Source of the DNA: an uncultured Dehalococcoidia bacterium
GTDB taxonomy: Bacteria; Chloroflexota; Dehalococcoidia; UBA2247; RBG-13-53-26
DNA length: 33,826 nt
Direction: 5' to 3'
NCBI GenBank assembly: GCA_964457045.1
Contig: CAYWDP010000005.1
Span: 1-33,826, forward strand
Shown piece by piece: positions 2,648 through 33,826 of the stretch. The notes under the pieces are model-generated. The model saw nothing but the letters and a program-made list of their open reading frames with translations. It made no database searches and was not told where the DNA came from. The translations under genes and the position numbers were made by a program. Each line of letters opens with the position of its first letter. The stretch's first letter is position 1.

Positions 2648-3646
2648 GTGTCAGAACTAAGACAGGATTTTGCGACCAGGGAATGGGTAATAATTGCTAC
2701 CGAAAGAGCAAAGCGCCCCCATCTGTTTGCCTCTGTGAGAGGGGAGGGAGAGGTGCCAGCCTGGGATGAAAATTGCCCTTTCTGCCCTGGAAACGAATTG
2801 AGGACAGCGCCGGAGGTATTCAAAATAGAGGGAACTCAATCAAGCTGGAGGGTGAGAGTAGTGCCCAATAAATATCCAGCTCTGATCCCTGAAGGAAGCA
2901 CTACTAGGAAGGTGGAAGAGGAGTTTTTCAGGAAAATAGAAGGGGTAGGGGTACATGAAGTCATAATAGAAAGCCCCTTACACAATGGTCTCCTTGCTCT
3001 GTCGGACGAGGCACAAATAGAAGAGGTTCTTTTCACTTACCGCGCTAGATATAATGCTCTCAAACCCCTCCCTTTTATACGCTTCATCTCTATCTTCAGG
3101 AATCAGGGAGAACGCGCTGGCACCTCACTGAGACACCCCCATTCCCAGCTGGTGGGTACACCCATTGCTCCTCCCTATATTAGAAGGAAGTTAGAGATTG
3201 CCCTGCAGCATTATGATGATATGGATACCTGTCTCTACTGCGACCTTTTTCACCACGAACTGGAGGTGGGAAAAAGGATTGTAGTGGAAACAGAAAACTT
3301 CATGGTTTTTCATCCCTATGCTTCCCGATCCCCTTTCGAGACCTGGATCGCCCCTAAGAAGCACCAGACTTCCTTCGGTCTGATTTCAGATGAGGAACTT
3401 CCTGAGCTTGCTGGAGTATTGCAGGATATCCTGCTTCGCCTCTATAAGTCACTAAGTAACCCTGACTTCAATTATATGATTTGCAGCTCGCCTACAGAGG
3501 ATGAGCACAATCACTACTATGACTGGCATATGGTGATTATCCCTCGGCTGACTACACCTGCCGGGTTTGAGATGGGCTCAGGTATTTATATAAACACAGC
3601 CTTGCCAGAGGAGACGGCTGAATTTATGAAAGGAGTATGCCTATGA
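2648..3646 (+). CDS. Galactose-1-phosphate uridylyltransferase-like (class I GalT / NDP-hexose phosphorylase, HIT superfamily)
   Basis: 332 aa, GTG start after GAAGAGG. Zinc motif CPFCPGNE (C43, C46). VVPNKYPAL segment. Active-site motif H163-P-H165-S-Q167 (RHPHSQLVG). Overlaps otsA by 10 nt. Confidence 0.8.
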   Translation: MSELRQDFATREWVIIATERAKRPHLFASVRGEGEVPAWDENCPFCPGNELRTAPEVFKIEGTQSSWRVRVVPNKYPALIPEGSTTRKVEEEFFRKIEGVGVHEVIIESPLHNGLLALSDEAQIEEVLFTYRARYNALKPLPFIRFISIFRNQGERAGTSLRHPHSQLVGTPIAPPYIRRKLEIALQHYDDMDTCLYCDLFHHELEVGKRIVVETENFMVFHPYASRSPFETWIAPKKHQTSFGLISDEELPELAGVLQDILLRLYKSLSNPDFNYMICSSPTEDEHNHYYDWHMVIIPRLTTPAGFEMGSGIYINTALPEETAEFMKGVCL

Positions 3647-5121
3647 GGACAAGGGAGAGCCTACACGATTTGGTAAGGAACAAGCTGGCTGAGTACCGTT
3701 TCATTGTTGTCTCTAACCGAGAGCCCTACATCCATCAGTGGTTTGGCGACCAGATCGTGTGTGGGGTTCCTGCCAGTGGGCTGACGGTTGCCTTGGATCC
3801 GGTGATGCGTGCTTGCGGGGGCACTTGGATAGCCCACGGCAGCGGTGACGCCGACCGGGAGGTGGTGGATAGTCAAAATAAGGTCTCTGTTCCACCGCAA
3901 GAGCCGAAATATACCCTGAGGCGAATCTGGCTTACCAAAGAGGAGGAAGACGGCTATTACTATGGCTTCGCTAACGAAGCCATCTGGCCCTTGTGTCACT
4001 TCTGTTACACCCGCCCTATCTTTAACGAGTCGGACTGGAGCGTCTACAAAAGGGTGAATGAAATTTTTGCTCAAGTCGTGCTCGAAGAGGTAGGAAATGA
4101 AAAAGCCTTTGTCTTTGTGCAAGATTACCATCTAACATTGCTGCCTCGCCTCATTAAAGAGGGAAACCCCGATATTGTGGTAGTCCAGTTCTGGCATATT
4201 CCTTGGCCCAATCCGGAAGCTATCCGTATCTGCCCTTGGCATGAAGAGATCTTGCATGGGCTTTTGGGTAATGACCTCCTGGGATTTCAAGTTCGCTACT
4301 TCTGTAACAATTTCCTGGATACTATAGACTGGGCAATTGAAGCCAGGGTAGACCGGGAAAGGCATGAGGTGAGCCGAGGAGGGAAAAAAACAGTGGTGCA
4401 ACCCTTCCCCATCAGCATTGATTTTGCCCAACTTTCCCACCAGGCTCAGCAGCCGGAGGTAGATGAGGAGATGAATCGGCTCAGGAGGCAATTGGGGCTC
4501 AGCCGCGAATTCATTGGCATAGGAATAGACCGTGTTGACTATACCAAGGGTATCCCTGACCGCTTGAGGGCTATCGACCGCTTCTTTGAGAAGTATCCTG
4601 ATTACCGGGGACAACTGGTCTTTGTCCAGGTGGGGGTTCCTAGCCGCATTCACATAAGAGCCTACAAGAGCGTACACGCGGAGATAGAGACCCTGGTGGA
4701 AGAGATAAACTGGAAATATGCCTCTGGACACTGGAGGCCCATCATCTACCTTCGGAGGCACCATCTGCCTCTGACCATGATGGCTCTGCACAGGATGGCA
4801 CATTTCTGCATTGTATCTTCGCTTCATGACGGAATGAACCTGGTAGCCAAGGAGTTTGTCGCCAGTCGTTTTGACGAAGATGGAGTGCTCATCCTTAGCC
4901 CCTTTACCGGGGCTGCCCGGGAGCTCACCGATGCCTTGCTGGTAAATCCTTATGCCACTGATCACCTCGCTGAGGCTATAAGGCGAGCGCTTGAGATGCG
5001 CCCCAGGGAAAGGCGGAGGCGTATGAGACGGATGCGAAGTGTGCTTCAGGAGAACAATATATATAAGTGGGCGGAAGATATAATCTCAGAGCTGGTGAAG
5101 TTTGAATTCGGAGAGACTTGA
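3637..5121 (+). CDS. otsA: Alpha,alpha-trehalose-phosphate synthase (GT20)
   Basis: 494 aa, ATG after AAAGGAG. GT20 hallmarks are [47 protein letters not shown] and [10 protein letters not shown]. It is followed directly by a trehalose-phosphatase gene. Confidence 0.85.
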
Positions 5122-5907
5122 TTGATACACCTCTTCTCCGCTTGGCAGGAAGTTTACCCTCGGCTGAAATCAGCAGAGCATATTATATTGCTAAGCGACT
5201 TCGATGGGACTCTTACTCCCATTGTTGAGAGACCTGAGTTAGCATATCTTCCTGAGCGAACAAAGAGATTACTGCAGGATTTGACGCGCCGCCAGCACTA
5301 TACAGTGGGGATAATCAGCGGCAGGGCTCTGGGCGACCTAAAAGATAGAGTAGGGCTAAAGGGGATCGTCTACGCTGGAAACTATGGTATGGAAATCGAG
5401 TCCCCCTGGTTTAGCTTCGTAACCCCTGCTGCCGAGGAGAGTAAGCCGTTACTTCACTCGCTGTGTCAGGAGCTGAGCCTAGCCCTCGGGGCAATCAAAG
5501 GGGTGATTGTGGAGAACAAGGGGCTGAGCTTTAGCGTTCACTATCGGCAGGTGGCGGAGAGCCAAAGCGATCAGGTAAGAAGTATTGTCGGGCAAGTCAC
5601 CCGCACTGCCCGTATGCGAGGGGAGATTCAGATTACTTTCGGCAAGAAGGTCTATGAGGTCAGACCAGCGCTAGACTGGGATAAAGGGAAAGTGGTAGAC
5701 TTGCTTTTTCAGAAGAAGAGGGGGGAAAAGGAAAAGGTTCTGCCCCTTTTTCTGGGTGATGACCTGAGTGATGAAGAGGGGTTCAAGGCTATTGACAAAT
5801 ATGGTGGTATTGCTATTTTTATAGGGGAGGAAGGAGGGCAATATGGAGCTCATTATTTCCTTAGGTCTCCCGCTGAGGTGGACGAGTTCCTGGAGAAGCT
5901 GCCTTAA
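5122..5907 (+). CDS. otsB: Trehalose-6-phosphate phosphatase (HAD superfamily)
   Basis: 261 aa. TTG start abuts the otsA stop (TGA 5119-5121), with GGAGAG 8 nt upstream. HAD motif I is LLSDFDGTLTP. ISGR and GDDLSDEEGF (motif IV-like) are also present. Confidence 0.8.
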   Translation: MIHLFSAWQEVYPRLKSAEHIILLSDFDGTLTPIVERPELAYLPERTKRLLQDLTRRQHYTVGIISGRALGDLKDRVGLKGIVYAGNYGMEIESPWFSFVTPAAEESKPLLHSLCQELSLALGAIKGVIVENKGLSFSVHYRQVAESQSDQVRSIVGQVTRTARMRGEIQITFGKKVYEVRPALDWDKGKVVDLLFQKKRGEKEKVLPLFLGDDLSDEEGFKAIDKYGGIAIFIGEEGGQYGAHYFLRSPAEVDEFLEKLP

Positions 5908-6020
5908 GCTTGGTGAAGGCACTAATGAATCTGTGGGATATGCAGATTGAGATTATTGGATAATAGCATTATTCCTAACCCTATATAGAATAGGAGGCTG
6001 ATCCAGGTAGAGGTATCGTC

Positions 6021-6674
6021 TTGAAGAAAGCCACAGAACCCTTCCGTTTCTCCACCAGATTCCACCTCAAGGAACTGACCGGGCTCAAAGCAAAGAGCCT
6101 GCGCCAACTGGCTGATATGTTGCGGGAGGTTCCTGACTCTGTTATTTACTATCACACGCACCACTTTATCGAGGAGCATCATTACCTTATCCCAGAGCCG
6201 CCCAATGACTTTGCTGTATGGGTGAGGAATGCGCTAGGTGACGAGGTGCTGAGTGAGAGACTCGCCAGTATCGATACCTTCGAGTTTCCCACCTTGGAAT
6301 CCCTAAAAGAGGGGATCCTTAGCGTAATAGAAGAAAGCCTTGTCTCAAAGCGAGACCCACGGGATGCCCCTGAGGGGAGGGAATTCCACTTTGCTAAGTC
6401 GGTGAGTGTCATTCTACCCCTCCCCTATGTAGCATATGACCTTAGGGAGTTTGTGGAGGTCCTCAGAGAGGTGAGCACCCGCTGCCTCTATTTCCACATT
6501 TTTGAATCAAGGCTAAAGAATGGGCAAGGAATGAACGATTTTTCTATCTGGATGAGGGATACGCTGGGGGAAGCGGAGCTAGCGGATAAGATCTCGCACC
6601 TTGATCCATATAATTACACCTTGGAGGGACTGAGGTCGTTACTGATTCAGCTCATCGAAAAACACATCAAATAA
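6021..6674 (+). CDS. Uncharacterised protein made of two homologous ~100-aa halves (possibly DUF5752-like; from memory, unverified)
   Basis: 217 aa. The only in-frame start is TTG at 6021, because the frame opens at 5994 after a TAG. Residues ~8-106 align with ~122-216 and share FxF, LRxxxxxLREV, YxH, NDFxxWxRxxLG, LExL and IE. The gene lies between otsB and a TreT-like gene, 5 nt from the latter. Confidence 0.6.
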   Translation: MKKATEPFRFSTRFHLKELTGLKAKSLRQLADMLREVPDSVIYYHTHHFIEEHHYLIPEPPNDFAVWVRNALGDEVLSERLASIDTFEFPTLESLKEGILSVIEESLVSKRDPRDAPEGREFHFAKSVSVILPLPYVAYDLREFVEVLREVSTRCLYFHIFESRLKNGQGMNDFSIWMRDTLGEAELADKISHLDPYNYTLEGLRSLLIQLIEKHIK

Positions 6675-6679
6675 GGCTC

Positions 6680-7885
6680 TTGGACTACGAGCCTTTTGTG
6701 GGTCGTAGCGTCATCGAGGAACTCAACCTACTGGCTGAAAAGCTGTCCGGCAAGGTACTTCAGAATATTAACTCCACCCGTAGTGGTGGAGGTGTAGCCG
6801 AAGTTTTGAGCCGTATAGTGCCCCTGCTGCAGCAGGTGGGGGTAGATGCGCATTGGAACGTTATCCAGGGAGGCCAGAAGTTCTTTCAGGCCACTAAGAA
6901 AGTTCATAATGCCCTTCAGGGGAAGGAAGAAAGCATCTCCTCAGAGGAGTTCTCCCTGCTCCTTCAGCCCAGCCGAGGAAAGATAGAAGATTACCTTTAT
7001 GGAGACATTATCCTCGTCCACGATGCCCAACCCATTGCTTTGGTGGCGAAAAGGAGAGAGGCGGGGGAAAAGTGGGTATGGCGATGTCATGTAGATGTGT
7101 CCAATCCTTGCCCAGAGGCATGGGACCTTGTCCGAGAATTCGTTGTCCAGTATGATGCTGCTGTCTTTTCTGCCGCCAGCTTTTCTCAGGAACTCCCTAT
7201 TCGGCAGTTCCTTATCACCCCTTCCATAGACCCGCTCAGCGAGAAGAATAGGGAGCTTTCTGGTAATGAAATAGAGTCAGTCCTAGCAGAATATGGCATC
7301 CCTCAAGATAAACCCATCATCACCCAAGTCTCCCGTTTCGACCATCTGAAGGACCCCATCGGCGTGATTCGGGCTTTCGAGATGGTGAGAAAGAACATAG
7401 ATTGCAGATTGGTTCTTGCCGGAGGCACAGCTGCTGATGATCCTGAGGCGGACAAAGTGCTGGCGGAGGTGGAGGAGAGGGCTGCAGGGAGTAAGGATAT
7501 CCATGTGCTGCTGCTCCCACCGAAGAGTGGCATCGAGATAAATGCTCTTCAGAGAGCATCCACAGTGGTGCTCCAGAAATCACTCAAGGAAGGCTTTGGA
7601 CTTACTGTAAGCGAAGCACTATGGAAGGGGAAGCCAGTGGTAGCTTCTGCGGTGGGAGGGATGCTGCTTCAGGTAAAGAACGGGTTCAACGGGCTCCTCT
7701 GCCACGGTGTAGAAGGGGCTGCCTATGCCCTGAGGCTGCTTCTCTCCAATCCAGAATATGCACGGTGGCTAGGAGAAAATGGTAGAGAGCACGTGAGGCA
7801 GAATTTCCTCATTACCAGGCATCTGAAAGAATATCTACTGCTTTTCCTCTCCCTCTACCATCCTGAAGACATAATCTATCTTTAG
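6680..7885 (+). CDS. treT: Trehalose glycosyltransferring synthase (TreT-type, GT4)
   Basis: 401 aa, TTG start. Strong resemblance to archaeal TreT as I recall it: INSTRSGGGVAEVL, FFQATKKVHNALQG, WVWRCHVD, TPSIDPLSEKN, KPIITQVSRFD, ADDPEA, EGFGLTVSEALWKGKPVV, NFLITRH. Confidence 0.75.
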   Translation: MDYEPFVGRSVIEELNLLAEKLSGKVLQNINSTRSGGGVAEVLSRIVPLLQQVGVDAHWNVIQGGQKFFQATKKVHNALQGKEESISSEEFSLLLQPSRGKIEDYLYGDIILVHDAQPIALVAKRREAGEKWVWRCHVDVSNPCPEAWDLVREFVVQYDAAVFSAASFSQELPIRQFLITPSIDPLSEKNRELSGNEIESVLAEYGIPQDKPIITQVSRFDHLKDPIGVIRAFEMVRKNIDCRLVLAGGTAADDPEADKVLAEVEERAAGSKDIHVLLLPPKSGIEINALQRASTVVLQKSLKEGFGLTVSEALWKGKPVVASAVGGMLLQVKNGFNGLLCHGVEGAAYALRLLLSNPEYARWLGENGREHVRQNFLITRHLKEYLLLFLSLYHPEDIIYL

Positions 7886-27604: not shown

Positions 27605-28663
27605 TCAAAACTCCGCAAGACGAGACTTCAGGTAATCTATAGAAGCCACCGGTGTGGGATCAATACTATTTAGTATGGCTAGGTAAAAGCTAACATAATC
27701 CCCTAAAAGAACCAAGCTCATCATTTGAGCTAAAGGGCTTTCTCCCATTGCCTCCGCCAATTCATAGCTAACCCCTGCTTTAGTAAGGATTTCGACGGTA
27801 AGGCGATAGCGAATCGAAATACGCGGATGGAGTAAGGAAGAGTGCAGTAATACCACCAGAATCCTTTCTCTCATCTCAGGGGGAAACTGATAGCCTACTA
27901 CAGCATTATGATTGAGTTCTGGGAAAACTTCGTAGAAAGCCCAAGCCTTGCTATTTTCATTAAGCTGGGTTTTCCAGCGCTGGGCTACCTCTGAGAGTAT
28001 CCCCGCTCCATAAATCACAGCCAACTTCCCTGAGAGCTTAGTCGCCAATTGCTTGGCTGGATTGGAGACAAGGGGCGTGCTTTCAACGAGTTCGGCTGTT
28101 AGTTTATTCAAAACCTGCATTGCTTCCTTTAAATCCGCCGATTTATCTTCAAGTAAACCAAGCTTGTGGAAAATACCTAGCAGGGAGATAAAGCTATGCG
28201 GGAAGGCAGCCCGTGGAGGCGCTTCATAATCTATAAGGAAAATAGGGATATCTTCTTTTTCAGCTAGCTCTTTCAGCCTGCCACCTCTGGTAAGCACTAG
28301 CTTCTTGGAGGGAATTTTCAGCGATTCAGCGAAGGAAGAAAGGGTCTCTTCGGTGTTCCCTGAGTAGCTTGAAGCAATAAGTAGAGTATTCTCGTTGAGG
28401 AAAGGGGGTGAATCATAACCCCGGTGCACCCAAGTGGGTAATCTGTTTTCCAGGAGAGTAAGGCGGTGCACTAGCTCGCCTCCAATAGCAGAGCCCCCCA
28501 TCCCCAGGATAATAGCCTTATCTACCCTGGCATAGTCTCGGGGTAGGTCAAACTTTAGGGCATTTTGCCAAGCTCGCTGGCACTGCTCGGGGAACTCGTG
28601 GAGATGCTTAAGCATCCCTGAGGGGTCAAGTTGTTGGTAAGTTTGAGGATTATCCAAGCTCAC
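27605..28663 (-). CDS. Bifunctional phosphoglucose/phosphomannose isomerase family (SIS domain)
   Basis: 352 aa, GTG start. Contains ILGMGGSAIGGEL and SYSGNTEET. Length and layout are typical of the archaeal-type PGI/PMI family. Lies 3 nt after the phosphohexomutase gene. Confidence 0.7.
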   Translation of the reverse strand: MSLDNPQTYQQLDPSGMLKHLHEFPEQCQRAWQNALKFDLPRDYARVDKAIILGMGGSAIGGELVHRLTLLENRLPTWVHRGYDSPPFLNENTLLIASSYSGNTEETLSSFAESLKIPSKKLVLTRGGRLKELAEKEDIPIFLIDYEAPPRAAFPHSFISLLGIFHKLGLLEDKSADLKEAMQVLNKLTAELVESTPLVSNPAKQLATKLSGKLAVIYGAGILSEVAQRWKTQLNENSKAWAFYEVFPELNHNAVVGYQFPPEMRERILVVLLHSSLLHPRISIRYRLTVEILTKAGVSYELAEAMGESPLAQMMSLVLLGDYVSFYLAILNSIDPTPVASIDYLKSRLAEF

Positions 28664-28666
28664 TGC

Positions 28667-30091
28667 CTAAACCCTCAATATCTTCCTTCCCTCTGCTATC
28701 AATTCTCCAGCTCTAGTTAAACTGTCAGCTTCAGCATAGATGCGAAGCATCGGCTCTGTTCCGGAGAAGCGGATCAACAACCAGGAGTCATCCGCCAGCG
28801 AGAAGTGAAAGCCATCAATGGTATTCACTCTTATTACTTCGCTCTGAGCAATGTGAGCTGGCATTTTGCTGGTGAGGCGGTGGAGGATTTTCTCTCGCTC
28901 CACGAGAGGAAATTCCAAGTCGACGCGCTGATAATGATGTGGTCCTACTTTCCTATAAAGGTAATCAATAAGCTCTGAGGGCGTTTTTCTTAGCTTAGTC
29001 ATGAAGTCGAGGAAGTAGATGCCGGCGAGAATACCATCGCGCTCAGGGATGTGACCTCGAAAGCCGAAGCCGCTACTTTCCTCCCCCCCGATAAGGGCAT
29101 TCTCGGCAATCATTACCGGGGCTACATATTTGAAGCCCACCGGTGTTTCGTAGACTGGCACATCATAAAGCTTGCCCAATTTATATAGCATACTGGTGGT
29201 AGTCAGTGTCTTAACAATAGCACCGCGCTCCCCTTTTACCTCTAGCAGGTAAAGAGCGAGCAAGGCAAAAATCTGTAAAGGAGTGAGAGGATTTCCCTTC
29301 TCATCTATAATGCCAAGGCGGTCAGCATCACCATCTGTAGCCAGTCCCACGTTGGCTTCGCTTTCTCTAACCAAAGTGGAAAGCTTTGATAGGTGAGGGG
29401 CAATGGGCTCAGGTTTAATCCCCGGGAAGAGGGGATTTCGCTCTCCATTAATCTCCACCACCTCAGTTTTACCACCCTGGAGGAGTTTTTTGAAGTAGCC
29501 AGCCCCTGCCCCGAACATGGAATCTACCACTATCTTCAAACCAGCTTGGTGTAGGTTTTCCAAGTCAATAAGCTGAGCCATGTGATGAAGATAGGCTGGG
29601 GCTAAATCGAGGTATTCAATGAGCCCCTGTGACAGCCCCTCATTCAGAGGTAGACGCTTCACCCTGTCTTGGGCAATGATTTCTGGCAATCGAGATTCAA
29701 TATCGGCTTCCACCTCGGTTGGAGCGGTAGTCCCCTCTTCAGATTTGACCTTGAAACCATTCCAGAGGGCGGGATTGTGGCTGGCAGTGATGATGATCGC
29801 CCCAGCGGATTTCCGATGTAGAATCCCGTAGCTTATCACCGGAGTGGGGGTAGGGGTGGGGCAAAGGGATACCTTGATTTGGTTAGCCGCCACTACTTCG
29901 CTAGCCGCAGCAGCAAAGTGCTCCGAGGCAAAGCGGGTGTCATAGCCTACAATTAGACCTCGGGAGGCGAGACCTTTATCCTGAAGATACTCAGCTACGC
30001 TTTGGGCACAAAGACGCACATTATCGAAGGTGAAATCTTGAGCAATAATGCCTCGCCAACCGTCAGTGCCAAACTTAATCGCCGTGCTCAT
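28667..30091 (-). CDS. Phosphoglucomutase/phosphomannomutase (alpha-D-phosphohexomutase)
   Basis: FGTDGWRG, active-site TASHNP, metal loop DGDADR and GEESSG. ATG 30091 (MSTAIKFGTDGWRG) is preferred over TTG 30100. Confidence 0.85.
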   Translation of the reverse strand: MSTAIKFGTDGWRGIIAQDFTFDNVRLCAQSVAEYLQDKGLASRGLIVGYDTRFASEHFAAAASEVVAANQIKVSLCPTPTPTPVISYGILHRKSAGAIIITASHNPALWNGFKVKSEEGTTAPTEVEADIESRLPEIIAQDRVKRLPLNEGLSQGLIEYLDLAPAYLHHMAQLIDLENLHQAGLKIVVDSMFGAGAGYFKKLLQGGKTEVVEINGERNPLFPGIKPEPIAPHLSKLSTLVRESEANVGLATDGDADRLGIIDEKGNPLTPLQIFALLALYLLEVKGERGAIVKTLTTTSMLYKLGKLYDVPVYETPVGFKYVAPVMIAENALIGGEESSGFGFRGHIPERDGILAGIYFLDFMTKLRKTPSELIDYLYRKVGPHHYQRVDLEFPLVEREKILHRLTSKMPAHIAQSEVIRVNTIDGFHFSLADDSWLLIRFSGTEPMLRIYAEADSLTRAGELIAEGRKILRV

Positions 30092-30104
30092 AACCCCCAA
30101 AAAC

Positions 30105-31325
30105 CTACTTACACTTGTGGTTAAAAAAGCAGTCCTTTACATCGGGGTGGCAAAGGCGAGCATGGCAAAAGGGGCAGGAAAGGGAGTGACTCTCACAGGC
30201 TGGACTTTGGCATACCTGGCAAATGGCTAGAGTTTCCTTTCCACAATATCCGCAGCCAGTCTCTTGAACAACAATAGCTCTCCTCTTTAGCTCCTTCTTT
30301 TCAAACCAGCAGCTATCATCTGCCTTGGTGAGGGAGCGGGTCTTCTCGAAAACAACACACCGCGCCCCGCCGCAAAGTTGCCGATAGGCACACTTACCGC
30401 ACTTGCCCTCCAAATTGTCTCGGTCTCTTAGCTTCCCGAAGACCTCAGACTCTTGCCAGATTTCCTGGAAGCTCTTTTCCCGAATATTCCCTGCTCTCCT
30501 TTGCAACACCATACAGGGATAGACTGTACCTTCATAAAATACACAGCAGTAGCGTGAAGCTGCTCCACAACAGGACCTGATGAATCTGCTCATCGCTTCT
30601 TTATGGGTAACCCTCTTCTCCACCTCCACCCAGAATTGGGGGATGCCAACGCATCGGTAAACCATATTTTGGTCGTGTAGTTGGTGCTGGATAATCTGGC
30701 TAACGAGCCACTGTTGCTCCTCAGAGGTCAGCGCTAAATCAGGCTGTTCCTTCCCTCTGCCTGCGGGTACATAGTGGAATATTTCGATGGCTAATGCTCT
30801 TAAGTTTCTTGCCAAGTTGATAATGGCATCAAATTGGGCAAGGTTATGGCGGTAGATACAGGTATTTATCTGGAAAGGGATACCGGCTGTGGCGACATTA
30901 TGGATGCCCGCCATAGCTCTTTCCCAGCTCCCTTCCATGCCACAGAAATCATCGTGGGATTTGGCATCTGCACCGTAGAGGCTGATAGAGAGGGATCTGA
31001 TGCCAGCCTTCTTCATTCTTTCTGCTGCTTCAGTGCTGAGGAGAGTTGCATTGGTGCCCAGCGTAGGTTGTAAGCCAACACTTTGGGCATGAGCAATAAG
31101 TTGGTAGATATCATCCCGCATCAAAGGCTCACCGCCATCAAAGATAAGGAGACGAGCCCCAGCCCCAGCAATCTCAGTGATCACTCGTTTTGCCTCATCC
31201 GTGGTCAATTCATCTGGGTGGGGGGAATCAGTAGCTTCACTGTAACAATGTTTACACCTTAAGTTGCATTCCCTGGTAACTGCAAAGCTAACCATTAATG
31301 GTGGCAGGATCTTATCTTTTTCCAT
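30105..31325 (-). CDS. Radical SAM / SPASM-domain protein with a C-terminal Cys/His-rich extension
   Basis: CNLRCKHC (CxxxCxxC) near the N-terminus and FDGGEPLMR. SPASM-like C...GTVYPC...CGKCAYRQLCGGARC. The last 53 aa contain 11 Cys and 4 His. ATG 31325 is used; the track uses TTG 31328. Confidence 0.8.
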   Translation of the reverse strand: MEKDKILPPLMVSFAVTRECNLRCKHCYSEATDSPHPDELTTDEAKRVITEIAGAGARLLIFDGGEPLMRDDIYQLIAHAQSVGLQPTLGTNATLLSTEAAERMKKAGIRSLSISLYGADAKSHDDFCGMEGSWERAMAGIHNVATAGIPFQINTCIYRHNLAQFDAIINLARNLRALAIEIFHYVPAGRGKEQPDLALTSEEQQWLVSQIIQHQLHDQNMVYRCVGIPQFWVEVEKRVTHKEAMSRFIRSCCGAASRYCCVFYEGTVYPCMVLQRRAGNIREKSFQEIWQESEVFGKLRDRDNLEGKCGKCAYRQLCGGARCVVFEKTRSLTKADDSCWFEKKELKRRAIVVQETGCGYCGKETLAICQVCQSPACESHSLSCPFCHARLCHPDVKDCFFNHKCK

Positions 31326-31349
31326 CAAGTTTCCCTTTCAACTCATCCG

Positions 31350-32594
31350 CTACGGCTGCTTTGACACCGAACCCTTTGCCTTGGCTATTCCAGCATCAGC
31401 CTGAAGCACCGCTACCTTGTCTGTTTTTTCCCAGGGGAGGTCAAGGTCATCCCGACCAAAGTGCCCGTAGGCAGCAGTAGGTCGATAAATAGGGCGGCGT
31501 AAATCAAAGGTTCTTATGATGGCTTCGGGGCGAAGGTCGAAGTGTTCCTTAATTAACTTGAGGATAATCTCTTCGTCCACCTTAGCTGTGCCAAAGGTTT
31601 CGATGGAGATAGCCAGGGGACGAGCTACACCAATGGAGTAGCATACTTGAATCTCCAAGCGGTCGGCTAATCCTGCTGCCACTAGGTTTTTGGCTATATA
31701 TCGAGTGGCATAGGTTGCGGAGCGGTCAACCTTAGTAGGGTCCTTGCCTGAGAAGCATCCACCACCATGCCTGGCTATACCCCCATAGGTATCCACCAAG
31801 TTCTTACGCCCGGTGAGCCCGGAATCCGCTACCGGACCCCCAACAACAAAACGCCCAGTGGGATTAACATAATACTTTGTTTTTTTATCCAGCAGGGATG
31901 AGGGGATGGTCGCTTTGATTACTTGCTCAATGATGTCGCGCTCGATTACATTGTGGCTAACTACGGGGTCATGCTGAGCTCCTATTATCACGCTGTCTAC
32001 TCGTCGGGGGACACCTCGGTGGTATTCCACGGTTACCTGAGATTTCCCATCAGGGCGGAGATAAGGTAGGAGTTTGCTTTTCCTCACTTTTGCCAGGCGG
32101 CGGCATAACTTATTGGCTAAAGAGATGGGCAAAGGCATAAGCTCTGGCGTTTCGTTGCAAGCAAAGCCAAACATTATCCCTTGGTCACCAGCACCGAGCT
32201 TATCCAAAACATCATTGTTTGCTATCCCCTTTCGTATCTCGAGGGATTCATCTACCCCCATAGCAATGTCTGGAGATTGTTCCTTAATGGAAACCATAAC
32301 CCCGCAACTCTGATAATCGAAGCCATATTCAGGGTGGGTATAGCCTATATCTCGAATTACCTCTCGCGCAACGTCAGGAATTTCCACATAGCAATCAGTG
32401 GTGATCTCACCCATAATTATCACCAGCCCGGTAGTTGTGGCTACTTCACAAGCTACCCGAGCATAAGGGTCTTTAGCCAGGATGGCATCGAGAACACCAT
32501 CTGAGATTTGGTCGCAGAGCTTATCGGGATGCCCTTCGGTGACTGATTCAGAGGCAAGCAAGTGTAAAGGGGATTTCATAAAGGTGGTGCTCAT
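31350..32594 (-). CDS. metK: S-adenosylmethionine synthetase
   Basis: 414 aa. Contains [30 protein letters not shown] and [16 protein letters not shown]. Confidence 0.95.
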
Positions 32595-32626
32595 TGGTCT
32601 TTTCTCCTTTTCTCGTCAAATTAAAT

Positions 32627-33826
32627 CTAAGTTCCCCACTCCCAACTCTCCAGGTATTGTCTCTGTTCTTTGGTTAGCTTGTCAATAGTAATGCCCATAG
32701 AGAGGAGCTTCAGCCGACCTACCTCCCAATCAATCTTTTGAGGCACGGGATAAACCCCGGGGGCAAGCCTCTTCTTAAGGTTGAACATATATTCGGCACA
32801 GAGAGCCTGGTTAGCGAAGCTCATGTCCATCACGCTAGCTGGGTGTCCCTCAGCAGCAGAAAGATTGATCAATCTCCCCTCGGCTAGCAGGAAGAGGCGT
32901 CGTCCATCCTGCAAAGTATACTCTTCAACAAAGGGACGTATTTTCCTTTTCTGGGTTGCTAGACTTTCTAAGGCAGGGATATTGATCTCCACATTGAAAT
33001 GGCCGCTGTTTGCCAAGATAGCCCCGTCTTTCATCAACTGGAAATGGGATTTGTCAATAGCGTTCAGCCCGCCGGTAACGGTGATAAAAATATCTCCTAT
33101 CCTAGCTGCCTCAAGCAATGGCGTTACCTGATATCCCTCCATTACTGCTTCCAGAGCGTGGACAGGGTTGACCTCAGTCACTATTACCTGGGCACCCAAG
33201 CCACGGGCACGCATGGCTATCCCCCGCCCGCACCAGCCATATCCGCAAACTACCACCTTCTTTCCAGCCCAAAGGATATTAGTCGCCCGAGTGATGCCAT
33301 CGATAGTGCTCTGTCCGGTGCCATAGCGATTATCAAAGAAGTGCTTTGTCTCTGCCTCGTTTACCGCAATAATAGGATATTTTAGCTTCCCCTCTTTCTC
33401 CATGCTGCGCAGTCGGACGATGCCTGTAGTGGTCTCTTCCATACCTCCAATAACCTTTCCGATGAGCTCAGTTTTTTCCTTATGCAGGGTACTAACTAAA
33501 TCAGCACCGTCATCTAGAGTAATATGAGGCTGCTGGGCAAGAGCAGCACGGATATGCTTGTAGTAGGTTTCATTATCCTCTCCCTTAATAGCATTGACAG
33601 GGATACCGTATTCGGTCAATAGAGCAGCAGCCACATCATCTTGAGTGCTGAGGGGATTGGAGGCGCAGAGGGCTACCTCAGCGCCACCAGCCTTGAGGGT
33701 GAGGGCGAGGTTGGCTGTCTCGGTGGTGATATGTAGGCAGGCAGAAATTCTGGCTCCTTTAAGGGGTTTTTCTTTAGCAAACCTCTCCCTGATCAGTTGT
33801 AGCACTGGCATCTCGCGGGATGCCCA
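32627..33826 (-). CDS. ahcY: Adenosylhomocysteinase, 5'-partial (the start lies beyond the window end)
   Basis: [29 protein letters not shown] and NAD-binding [12 protein letters not shown]. The reading frame stays open to 33826 (...[10 protein letters not shown]), matching the conserved region upstream of the listed Met. Confidence 0.9.

Follow-up and report, generated by a model that had tools for sequence, protein, structure and literature searches.

The DNA considered here, a stretch of 33,826 nucleotides (hereafter the window) from an uncultured Dehalococcoidia bacterium (contig CAYWDP010000005.1), carries a five-gene cluster in which the trehalose genes otsA, otsB and treT are accompanied by a gene for a GalT-like protein of the ADP-glucose phosphorylase type and by orfY, which codes for a DUF5752 protein. 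The GalT-like gene is associated with treT, otsAB, glgC and the PGM gene beyond the close relatives of the window, and its conserved neighbourhood with treT suggests an undescribed two-enzyme route between trehalose and glucose 1-phosphate (Glc-1-P). Our interpretation, which is held tentatively and with a little less than even confidence, is that the cluster represents an osmotic-stress trehalose module to which a GalT-like enzyme has been added, and that this enzyme and TreT together recycle trehalose to Glc-1-P.

In agreement with the preliminary description of this DNA, which had reported a trehalose cluster of five co-directional genes, a mechanical list of open reading frames (ORFs) places all five on the plus strand within 2648-7885, at exactly the coordinates first noted (Table 1), and Pfam and NCBIfam searches confirmed the family of every one of them. 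Two of the gene junctions also read in the sequence as described: the otsA stop codon (TGA, 5119-5121) directly abuts the TTG of otsB, and the orfY stop ends 5 nt ahead of the TTG of treT. The gap between otsB and orfY amounts to 113 nt. As to the GalT-like gene and otsA, for which an overlap of 10 nt had been given, the overlap itself stands but its length is probably different. Since the Shine-Dalgarno-like AAAGGAG lies 7 nt from the second ATG of otsA (3643) and just 1 nt from the first (3637), otsA more likely starts at 3643, making a 4-nt ATGA overlap with the GalT-like stop, and an overlap of 4 nt is found in the related locus L081 too. Because the order GalT-like-otsA-otsB-treT recurs in the relatives L081 and L083-85, whose GalT-like proteins share 62-69% identity with that of the window, the arrangement is not a chance one. 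Promoter-like and terminator-like matches in the cluster were no commoner than in shuffled sequence, and an Rfam search of the window for regulatory RNA returned only a cut tRNA at 1-55.

Table 1. Features of the trehalose cluster and peripheral sugar-phosphate genes of the window.
Feature	Position	Strand	Remarks
GalT-like class I HIT nucleotidyltransferase, ADP-glucose phosphorylase type	2648..3646	+	332 aa, GTG start; Pfam, PDB match, AlphaFold (AF2) model
Shine-Dalgarno-like AAAGGAG	3629..3635	+	read from sequence; favours the otsA ATG at 3643
OtsA, GT20 trehalose-6-phosphate synthase	3637..5121	+	494 aa as listed; start probably 3643
OtsB, HAD-IIB trehalose-6-phosphate phosphatase	5122..5907	+	261 aa, TTG start; DFDGT motif
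OrfY/DUF5752, stand-alone	6021..6674	+	217 aa, TTG start; PF19027, 4CSO
TreT, GT4 trehalose glycosyltransferring synthase	6680..7885	+	401 aa, TTG start
Bifunctional phosphoglucose/phosphomannose isomerase (PGI)	27605..28663	-	NF006425, 389 bits; peripheral to the cluster
Phosphohexomutase (PGM/PMM family), Glc-1-P/glucose 6-phosphate	28667..30100	-	PGM/GlmM models, all below equivalog cut-offs; peripheral

The GalT-like protein harbours the N- and C-terminal GalP_UDP_transf domains (PF01087, PF02744; Pfam), and this two-domain architecture, together with an HxHxQ motif, places it in the class I GalT family of the HIT superfamily (IPR001937). Across 22 homologues neither the motif residues H163, H165 and Q167 nor C43, C46 and H103 vary; the latter three, by their likeness to E. 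coli GalT, would be zinc ligands. The best PDB sequence match is At5g18200, the characterised ADP-glucose phosphorylase of Arabidopsis (1Z84; 232 bits, E 8.6e-68; 37% identity), whereas the GalTs of P. aerophilum and E. coli score 118 bits and 91 bits (E 5.9e-25), respectively. The AF2 model (mean predicted local distance difference test score, pLDDT, 81.5) fits E. coli, human and Arabidopsis structures with template-modelling (TM) scores of 0.80-0.85; the best structural match is again At5g18200 (1Z84/2H39, TM 0.83/0.89), whose structures were retrieved by Foldseek with E values of 1e-29 to 2e-30 vs ~1e-22 for GalTs. The protein is thus closer to At5g18200 than to bona fide uridylyltransferases and falls into the At5g18200-like subgroup. 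The earlier suggestion that it may act as an NDP-glucose phosphorylase is therefore borne out as far as the type of enzyme is concerned, and the protein probably swaps ADP-glucose and inorganic phosphate (Pi) for Glc-1-P and ADP. This activity is one that we infer, because no more than 37% of the residues are identical and At5g18200 stands apart from the bacterial GalT-like clade in an unbootstrapped neighbour-joining (NJ) tree.

The same protein passes the NCBIfam cut-off for galT (TIGR00209, 121.5 vs 102.1 bits), which is why its relatives are named GalT in the source databases, and such names would suit an ordinary galactose-1-phosphate uridylyltransferase of the Leloir pathway that stands beside trehalose genes by accident. 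However, the scores against ADP-glucose phosphorylase are far better than those against any GalT, and the recurrent, independent adjacency to treT, otsAB, glgC and PGM lies far above chance. In addition, the galK, galE and galM families are not among the 25 commonest in 107 ORFs flanking GalT-like genes, nor were these genes seen in the annotated trehalose-linked loci (L081, L083-L086, L167-L171). A classical Leloir enzyme was consequently rejected, and an accidental neighbour of this kind seems very improbable.

Searching for the GalT-like family yielded 7,519 matches at E<1e-20, and more than 593 loci, from a wide range of phyla, came out of a scan of GTDB genomes. Most GalT-like genes of other phyla lack a sugar context; those of Acidobacteria and Elusimicrobia and the majority of the deltaproteobacterial ones stand beside genes for aspartate kinase, an AI-2E transporter and shikimate kinase. 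One part of the NJ tree, in which four clades (A-D) can be told apart, is repeatedly linked to genes of nucleoside diphosphate (NDP)-glucose and trehalose metabolism. Clade A, represented by L017, L024, L053 and five of five sampled relatives (L167-L171; GalT-like proteins 71-85% identical to that of L017), has the GalT-like gene followed by treT; the pair is thereby found in eight Chloroflexota loci with unrelated flanks, the spacing being 20-45 nt in the five loci with called genes (L167-L171). The window belongs to clade B together with L081, L083-85 and L086, where the order is GalT-like-otsA-otsB-(orfY)-treT; in L081 the genes run PGM-PGI-GalT-like-otsA-otsB, and in L086 a GH57 gene adjoins the GalT-like gene. 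The place of the window's GalT-like protein in the tree also makes it probable that the source organism belongs to the Chloroflexota. In 11 loci of clade C (Dehalococcoidales) the GalT-like gene is immediately preceded by glgC, and most of these loci also have otsA-otsB close by, as a rule in convergent orientation; the product of this glgC scores 445 bits against NF003670 (ADP-glucose pyrophosphorylase). Clade D comprises a Binatia metagenome-assembled genome (MAG; L036), in which treT and orfY diverge from a GalT-like->phosphoketolase pair, a Nitrospira MAG (L029) with orfY-treT 8 kb from the GalT-like gene, and a Nitrospirae locus (L043) with the order GalT-like->ackA. PGM or PGI genes adjoin GalT-like genes in L081 and L171, in the latter as a PGM gene following the GalT-like-TreT pair, and lie nearby in L015 and L045.

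The preliminary description had tied the GalT-like enzyme to TreT, and the conserved pair in eight Chloroflexota loci, joined by the Binatia and Nitrospira MAGs, upholds that tie. Since the tight pair recurs amid unrelated flanks, and since linkages to otsAB, glgC and orfY-treT are found besides, there is good support for the GalT-like enzyme and TreT being functionally coupled. The recurrent neighbours have ADP- or NDP-glucose and Glc-1-P in common, and equilibration of ADP-glucose with Glc-1-P is therefore the most economical reading of the GalT-like enzyme.

Two further features of these neighbourhoods may be recorded. In the Dehalococcoidales loci (L007, L012, L013, L015, L018, L020-L023, L026, L027) glgC invariably precedes the GalT-like gene as its immediate neighbour on the same strand; GlgC and a putative phosphorylase of the same nucleotide sugar would, if both are active, make up a cycle converting ATP + Pi to ADP + pyrophosphate (PPi). 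Genes for acetate kinase and/or phosphoketolase adjoin the GalT-like gene in four loci of different phyla (L017:3475-9674, L036:2545-8097, L043:1927-4190, L055:5762-8023): the phosphoketolase XFP is adjacent in two (L017, L036) and AckA in three (L017, L043, L055), the order in L017 being ackA-phosphoketolase-like-GalT-like-treT. A phosphate-dependent catabolic chain from trehalose to acetyl-phosphate is possible. Neither gene was seen in the five further GalT-like-TreT loci (L167-L171), so a general link with the GalT-like gene was discarded, and the association is taken as a hint.

The three trehalose enzymes of the cluster have well-understood counterparts. OtsA and OtsB together synthesise trehalose irreversibly from NDP-glucose and glucose 6-phosphate (Glc-6-P), while TreT interconverts NDP-glucose plus glucose with trehalose plus NDP, a reaction that is reversible in some characterised homologues. 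OtsA of the window contains a full-length GT20 domain (Glyco_transf_20, PF00982; E 1.5e-123, residues 21-486), scores 442 bits against TIGR02400, which is below the equivalog cut-off of 565, and finds its best PDB match in OtsA of M. thermoresistibile (282 bits). OtsB is a HAD-IIB phosphatase with the DxDGT motif (Trehalose_PPase, E 1.6e-41; TIGR00685, trehalose-6-phosphate phosphatase, 170.5 bits vs a cut-off of 68). TreT combines the TreT-specific N-terminal domain (TreT_GT1, PF21269; E 6.5e-47) with a GT1-type C-terminal domain (Glycos_transf_1; Pfam) and is highly similar over its full length to characterised TreTs, being closest to Thermoproteus TreT (6ZJ4, E 2.9e-114), followed by that of P. 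horikoshii (2X6Q, E 1.4e-93); against the Thermococcales equivalog it scores 340 vs a cut-off of 775. The adenine pocket of mycobacterial OtsA is shaped by Leu319, Val363 and Glu367 (PMC6879718). By alignment, the window enzyme has Val, Leu and Thr at these positions, unlike both the mycobacterial L, V, E and the I, F, L of E. coli; the three specificity residues were accordingly abandoned as a guide to donor preference, for which they are not diagnostic here.

Taken together, these identities allow the following scheme to be drawn. The lineage would have placed an ADP-glucose-phosphorylase-type HIT enzyme at the front of a conserved otsA-otsB-orfY-treT core, in which OtsA and OtsB would irreversibly build a trehalose pool. 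The GalT-like enzyme would interconvert ADP-glucose + Pi and Glc-1-P + ADP via a His165-AMP intermediate and, acting with TreT, would provide a two-step equivalent of a retaining trehalose phosphorylase, with ADP as a carrier that is recycled between the two. Overall this amounts to trehalose + Pi <-> Glc-1-P + glucose, which textbook free energies place near equilibrium, and a large OtsAB-made trehalose pool would push it towards Glc-1-P, so that the solute could be recycled without ATP; PGM and PGI would then return the carbon to glycolysis. OrfY, the soluble form of a domain that usually forms the cytoplasmic tail of an MscS-type channel and is encoded just upstream of treT, may sense or regulate and would have no catalytic part.

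For the bicistronic GalT-like-TreT pair only two readings are coherent, namely reverse TreT followed by phosphorolysis, as in the recycling scheme, or reverse phosphorolysis followed by TreT. According to the latter, the GalT-like enzyme runs in the direction Glc-1-P + ADP -> ADP-glucose + Pi and supplies OtsA and TreT with a donor without expenditure of nucleoside triphosphate (NTP). Trehalose would then be made from Glc-1-P and Glc-6-P (with release of 2 Pi) or from Glc-1-P and glucose, which would suit energy-limited anaerobes.

Several observations speak for such a supply and weigh against recycling. The GalT-like gene leads the operon and overlaps otsA, the gene of a synthetic enzyme, in the window, L081 and L083, and in the window its translational coupling is to otsA, not to treT. 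The PGM-PGI-GalT-like-otsA-otsB order of L081 reads as a biosynthetic line and contains no pyrophosphorylase gene; likewise, the clusters of the window and of L083 are without glgC and galU. The GalT-like-TreT pairs of L167, L168 and L171 are found amid ion transporters typical of osmolyte-synthesis islands, among them Na+/H+ exchangers and cation ATPases. The overall reaction with OtsAB is, as estimated from textbook free energies, exergonic. Recycling is further burdened by the consideration that an operon expressing synthesis and breakdown together would be futile unless regulated further, and by the position of At5g18200 outside the bacterial clade, as mentioned above. Moreover, the GalT-like gene was found within 10 kb in 0 of 80 metagenome loci with orfY-treT; the neighbourhood check proposed in the preliminary description, whether GalT-like gene, unknown gene and treT co-occur, thus has a divided outcome, since GalT-like gene and treT do occur together beyond close relatives, but the set of three is rare. 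Finally, the closest characterised TreT group, that of Thermoproteus, is reported to be unidirectional (PMC3634074). On the side of recycling, T. litoralis and Thermogutta have been proposed to break down trehalose by running TreT backwards (PMC5673643).

The thermodynamics, on the other hand, disfavour the supply of donor by the GalT-like enzyme. Phosphorolysis of ADP-glucose is the favoured direction, with an equilibrium constant of about 5-40, and supply from ADP and Glc-1-P at cellular Pi/ADP would keep ADP-glucose sub-micromolar, a poor level for either OtsA or TreT; with TreT alone, from Glc-1-P and glucose, high trehalose could not be sustained. In 11 Dehalococcoidia loci, moreover, a bona fide glgC stands beside the GalT-like gene, which would make a second supplier of ADP-glucose redundant and favours recycling, and the phosphoketolase and acetate kinase neighbours give a catabolic hint in the same direction. 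On account of the free energies and the equilibrium constant, recycling is favoured over NTP-free supply, which we consider unlikely, if far from negligible.

The glgC-GalT-like pair of the 11 loci could also be understood as a means of controlling the ADP-glucose pool, the GalT-like enzyme being a phosphate-responsive drain on excess made by GlgC that tunes trehalose and glycogen synthesis to energy and phosphate, with no particular coupling to TreT in reverse. The GH57 gene adjoining the GalT-like gene in L086, two alpha-amylase/CBM48 proteins among the flanking ORFs elsewhere, and the wide occurrence of the GalT-like family without trehalose genes nearby fit such a role. Yet it leaves the conserved GalT-like→TreT unit unexplained, which occurs in eight loci with varying flanks and without glgC, and GlgC plus phosphorylase would, short of tight regulation, amount to futile cycling of ATP -> ADP + PPi. 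Pool control therefore appears improbable.

The fourth gene of the cluster, described at first as coding for an unknown protein, in fact encodes DUF5752/OrfY, a recognised neighbour of treT with a solved structure (4CSO). The 217-aa product matches PF19027 over its full length (E 1.2e-66, profile positions 2-208 of 208) and has the OrfY fold: it matches 4CSO, T. tenax OrfY, with E 2e-29, and its AF2 model (pLDDT 87.5) fits that structure at TM 0.83 and 33% identity. The fold search gave no PDB match besides 4CSO and hence no functional lead. The domain (6021-6674) is an internal duplication, in which YYHTHHF...NDFAVW...LGD is followed by LYFHIFESR...NDFSIW...LGE; in the model each repeat consists of five helices preceded by a long beta-hairpin, and a number of His residues are invariant.

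Metagenomes were scanned with an OrfY alignment, which gave 80 loci, those of a scan being the ones most similar to the query; the contigs are without taxonomy and their ORFs, as in all retrieved loci, were called by a simple greedy script. In 68 of 70 of these loci DUF5752 forms the C-terminal part of a larger protein, with an N-terminal extension of 225-269 aa (typically ~240 aa) that contains 4-6 hydrophobic segments, and DUF5752 homologues in the protein database carry matches to the MscS-type PF00924. The fused membrane protein is ~460 aa long (L088-L166, e.g. L089:5280-6655; proteins P0162, P0180, P0193), and the stand-alone OrfY of the window is an exception shared with its closest relative, L087. 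A Pfam search detected no DNA-binding domain in OrfY. With most relatives being membrane fusions and homologues bearing an MscS-type domain, the label 'transcription factor' that the PDB attaches to OrfY is doubtful. The identity of OrfY points to osmotic regulation, away from the chemistry of recycling.

As to the genes around orfY, of the 63 metagenome loci with enough sequence 62 have treT as the next gene downstream, while otsA and otsB are present in 42/80 and 51/80 loci, respectively; where at least 5 kb was available on both sides, otsA was found in 16 of 17. The flanks contain a full-length MscS channel, a TetR regulator, a CLC channel with CBS domains, a Na+/H+ exchanger with CBS and a cation ATPase. 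The widely conserved core is otsA-otsB-(mscS~)orfY-treT, an osmotic-stress island. The recurrent island can be followed in the flanks of L089-L166 (e.g. L095:5566-6909, L141:3697-4302, L103:3608-5407, L146:13475-15091), and glgA, glgC and GH57 genes occasionally occur in it as well.

Joining these strands, one may picture that a HIT enzyme of the ADP-glucose phosphorylase type and TreT constitute a dedicated two-gene 'split trehalose phosphorylase' with ADP as catalytic carrier, both in a large group of Chloroflexota and here and there in Nitrospirota and Binatota, that the same HIT enzyme combined with OtsAB allows NTP-free trehalose synthesis, and that DUF5752/OrfY acts as a channel-tethered sensor coupling an MscS-type valve to TreT, and not as a transcription factor. 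This wider picture is put forward as a conjecture with an appreciable, though somewhat less than even, chance of being right.

The phosphohexomutase had been proposed to feed the product of the route back to Glc-6-P, and the proposal finds some support in relatives, in that the same PGM-PGI pair immediately precedes the GalT-like gene of L081 and a PGM gene follows the GalT-like-TreT pair of L171; in the window itself the PGM gene is distant, 20 kb from the cluster on the opposite strand and beyond the ribosomal operon. The window PGI and PGM are 73% and 76% identical to the respective proteins of L081. Downstream of the cluster the minus strand carries rpsI, rplM, truA, rplQ and rpoA, then the ribosomal superoperon; upstream of the ribosomal-protein/EF-G block, also on the minus strand (27605-33811), the PGI/PMI and phosphohexomutase genes are joined by genes for a radical SAM/SPASM protein (30105-31328), SAM synthetase and SAH hydrolase. 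At its left end the window cuts into a tRNA gene (Rfam, 1-55), whose final 25 nt (32-56, GGGGTTCAAATCCCCTCGGGGTCGC) are repeated exactly at 2366-2390, and the two copies bracket a 2.3-kb segment with two membrane-protein ORFs on the minus strand (473-1108, DUF4389; 1356-2054). This segment, just upstream of the GalT-like gene, looks like a small integrated element, or the remnant of one, bounded by attL and attR.

Within the library searched, no paper was found linking DUF5752, TreT plus a GalT-like enzyme, or a bacterial ADP-glucose phosphorylase with trehalose, and none describing the two-enzyme route, which at the outset was not known to have been described as a unit. Two things appear to be undescribed: that an ADP-glucose-phosphorylase-type enzyme is a conserved partner of TreT or OtsA, and that DUF5752/OrfY usually occurs as a tail of MscS channels. 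If the recycling interpretation is true, more than 7,500 database proteins of the bacterial family, now annotated as GalT, would gain a physiological role, and the known trehalose pathways would be extended by an ATP-neutral connection with Glc-1-P, a matter of relevance to subsurface Chloroflexota starved of energy; a biocatalytic cascade making trehalose or its analogues from Glc-1-P is a possible application. For DUF5752, whose structure has been solved, the finding of a channel tail encoded beside treT supplies a testable proposal, that it links solute synthesis to mechanosensitive release.

Of the known systems, the ADP-glucose phosphorylase At5g18200 (1Z84, 2H39) has the same fold, length and HxHxQ motif as the GalT-like protein and is its best match in both sequence and structure. 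It differs in being a plant gene without an operon context that would link it to TreT or OtsA, and in the sequence distance given above. The best structural homologues of the orfY-treT products are TreT and OrfY of Thermoproteus tenax/T. uzoniensis (6ZJ4, 4CSO), which, as in the window, stand alongside a trehalose-6-phosphate synthase/phosphatase route in a stress context; in T. tenax orfY reportedly lies next to treT, an observation attributed to Kouril et al. 2008. We know of no GalT-like partner in this archaeal system, and its OrfY carries the PDB label of a transcription factor, whereas the bacterial relatives are mostly MscS fusions. The tpsp operon of T. tenax (tpsp-gt-msc) includes a mechanosensitive channel (PMC3634074), and the otsA-otsB-orfY-treT island is analogous to it in logic. 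Reverse TreT has been proposed as the only trehalose breakdown route in T. litoralis and Thermogutta terrifontis; these proposals do not settle what becomes of the NDP-glucose, and in the portion of that paper considered here no dedicated phosphorylase partner is named (PMC5673643).

With respect to chemistry, two precedents can be named. The retaining trehalose phosphorylase (GT4, EC 2.4.1.231) performs the same net conversion, of a disaccharide and Pi to Glc-1-P and a hexose, and in the proposed route two proteins would share this conversion between them, ADP being the recycled carrier. In plants and cyanobacteria, sucrose synthase followed by conversion of NDP-glucose to Glc-1-P likewise runs a GT4 Leloir enzyme backwards and conserves the energy of the glycosidic bond; the second enzyme proposed here differs in taking Pi, not PPi. 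Each protein of the cluster belongs to a known family, and the net reaction proposed is that of trehalose phosphorylase.

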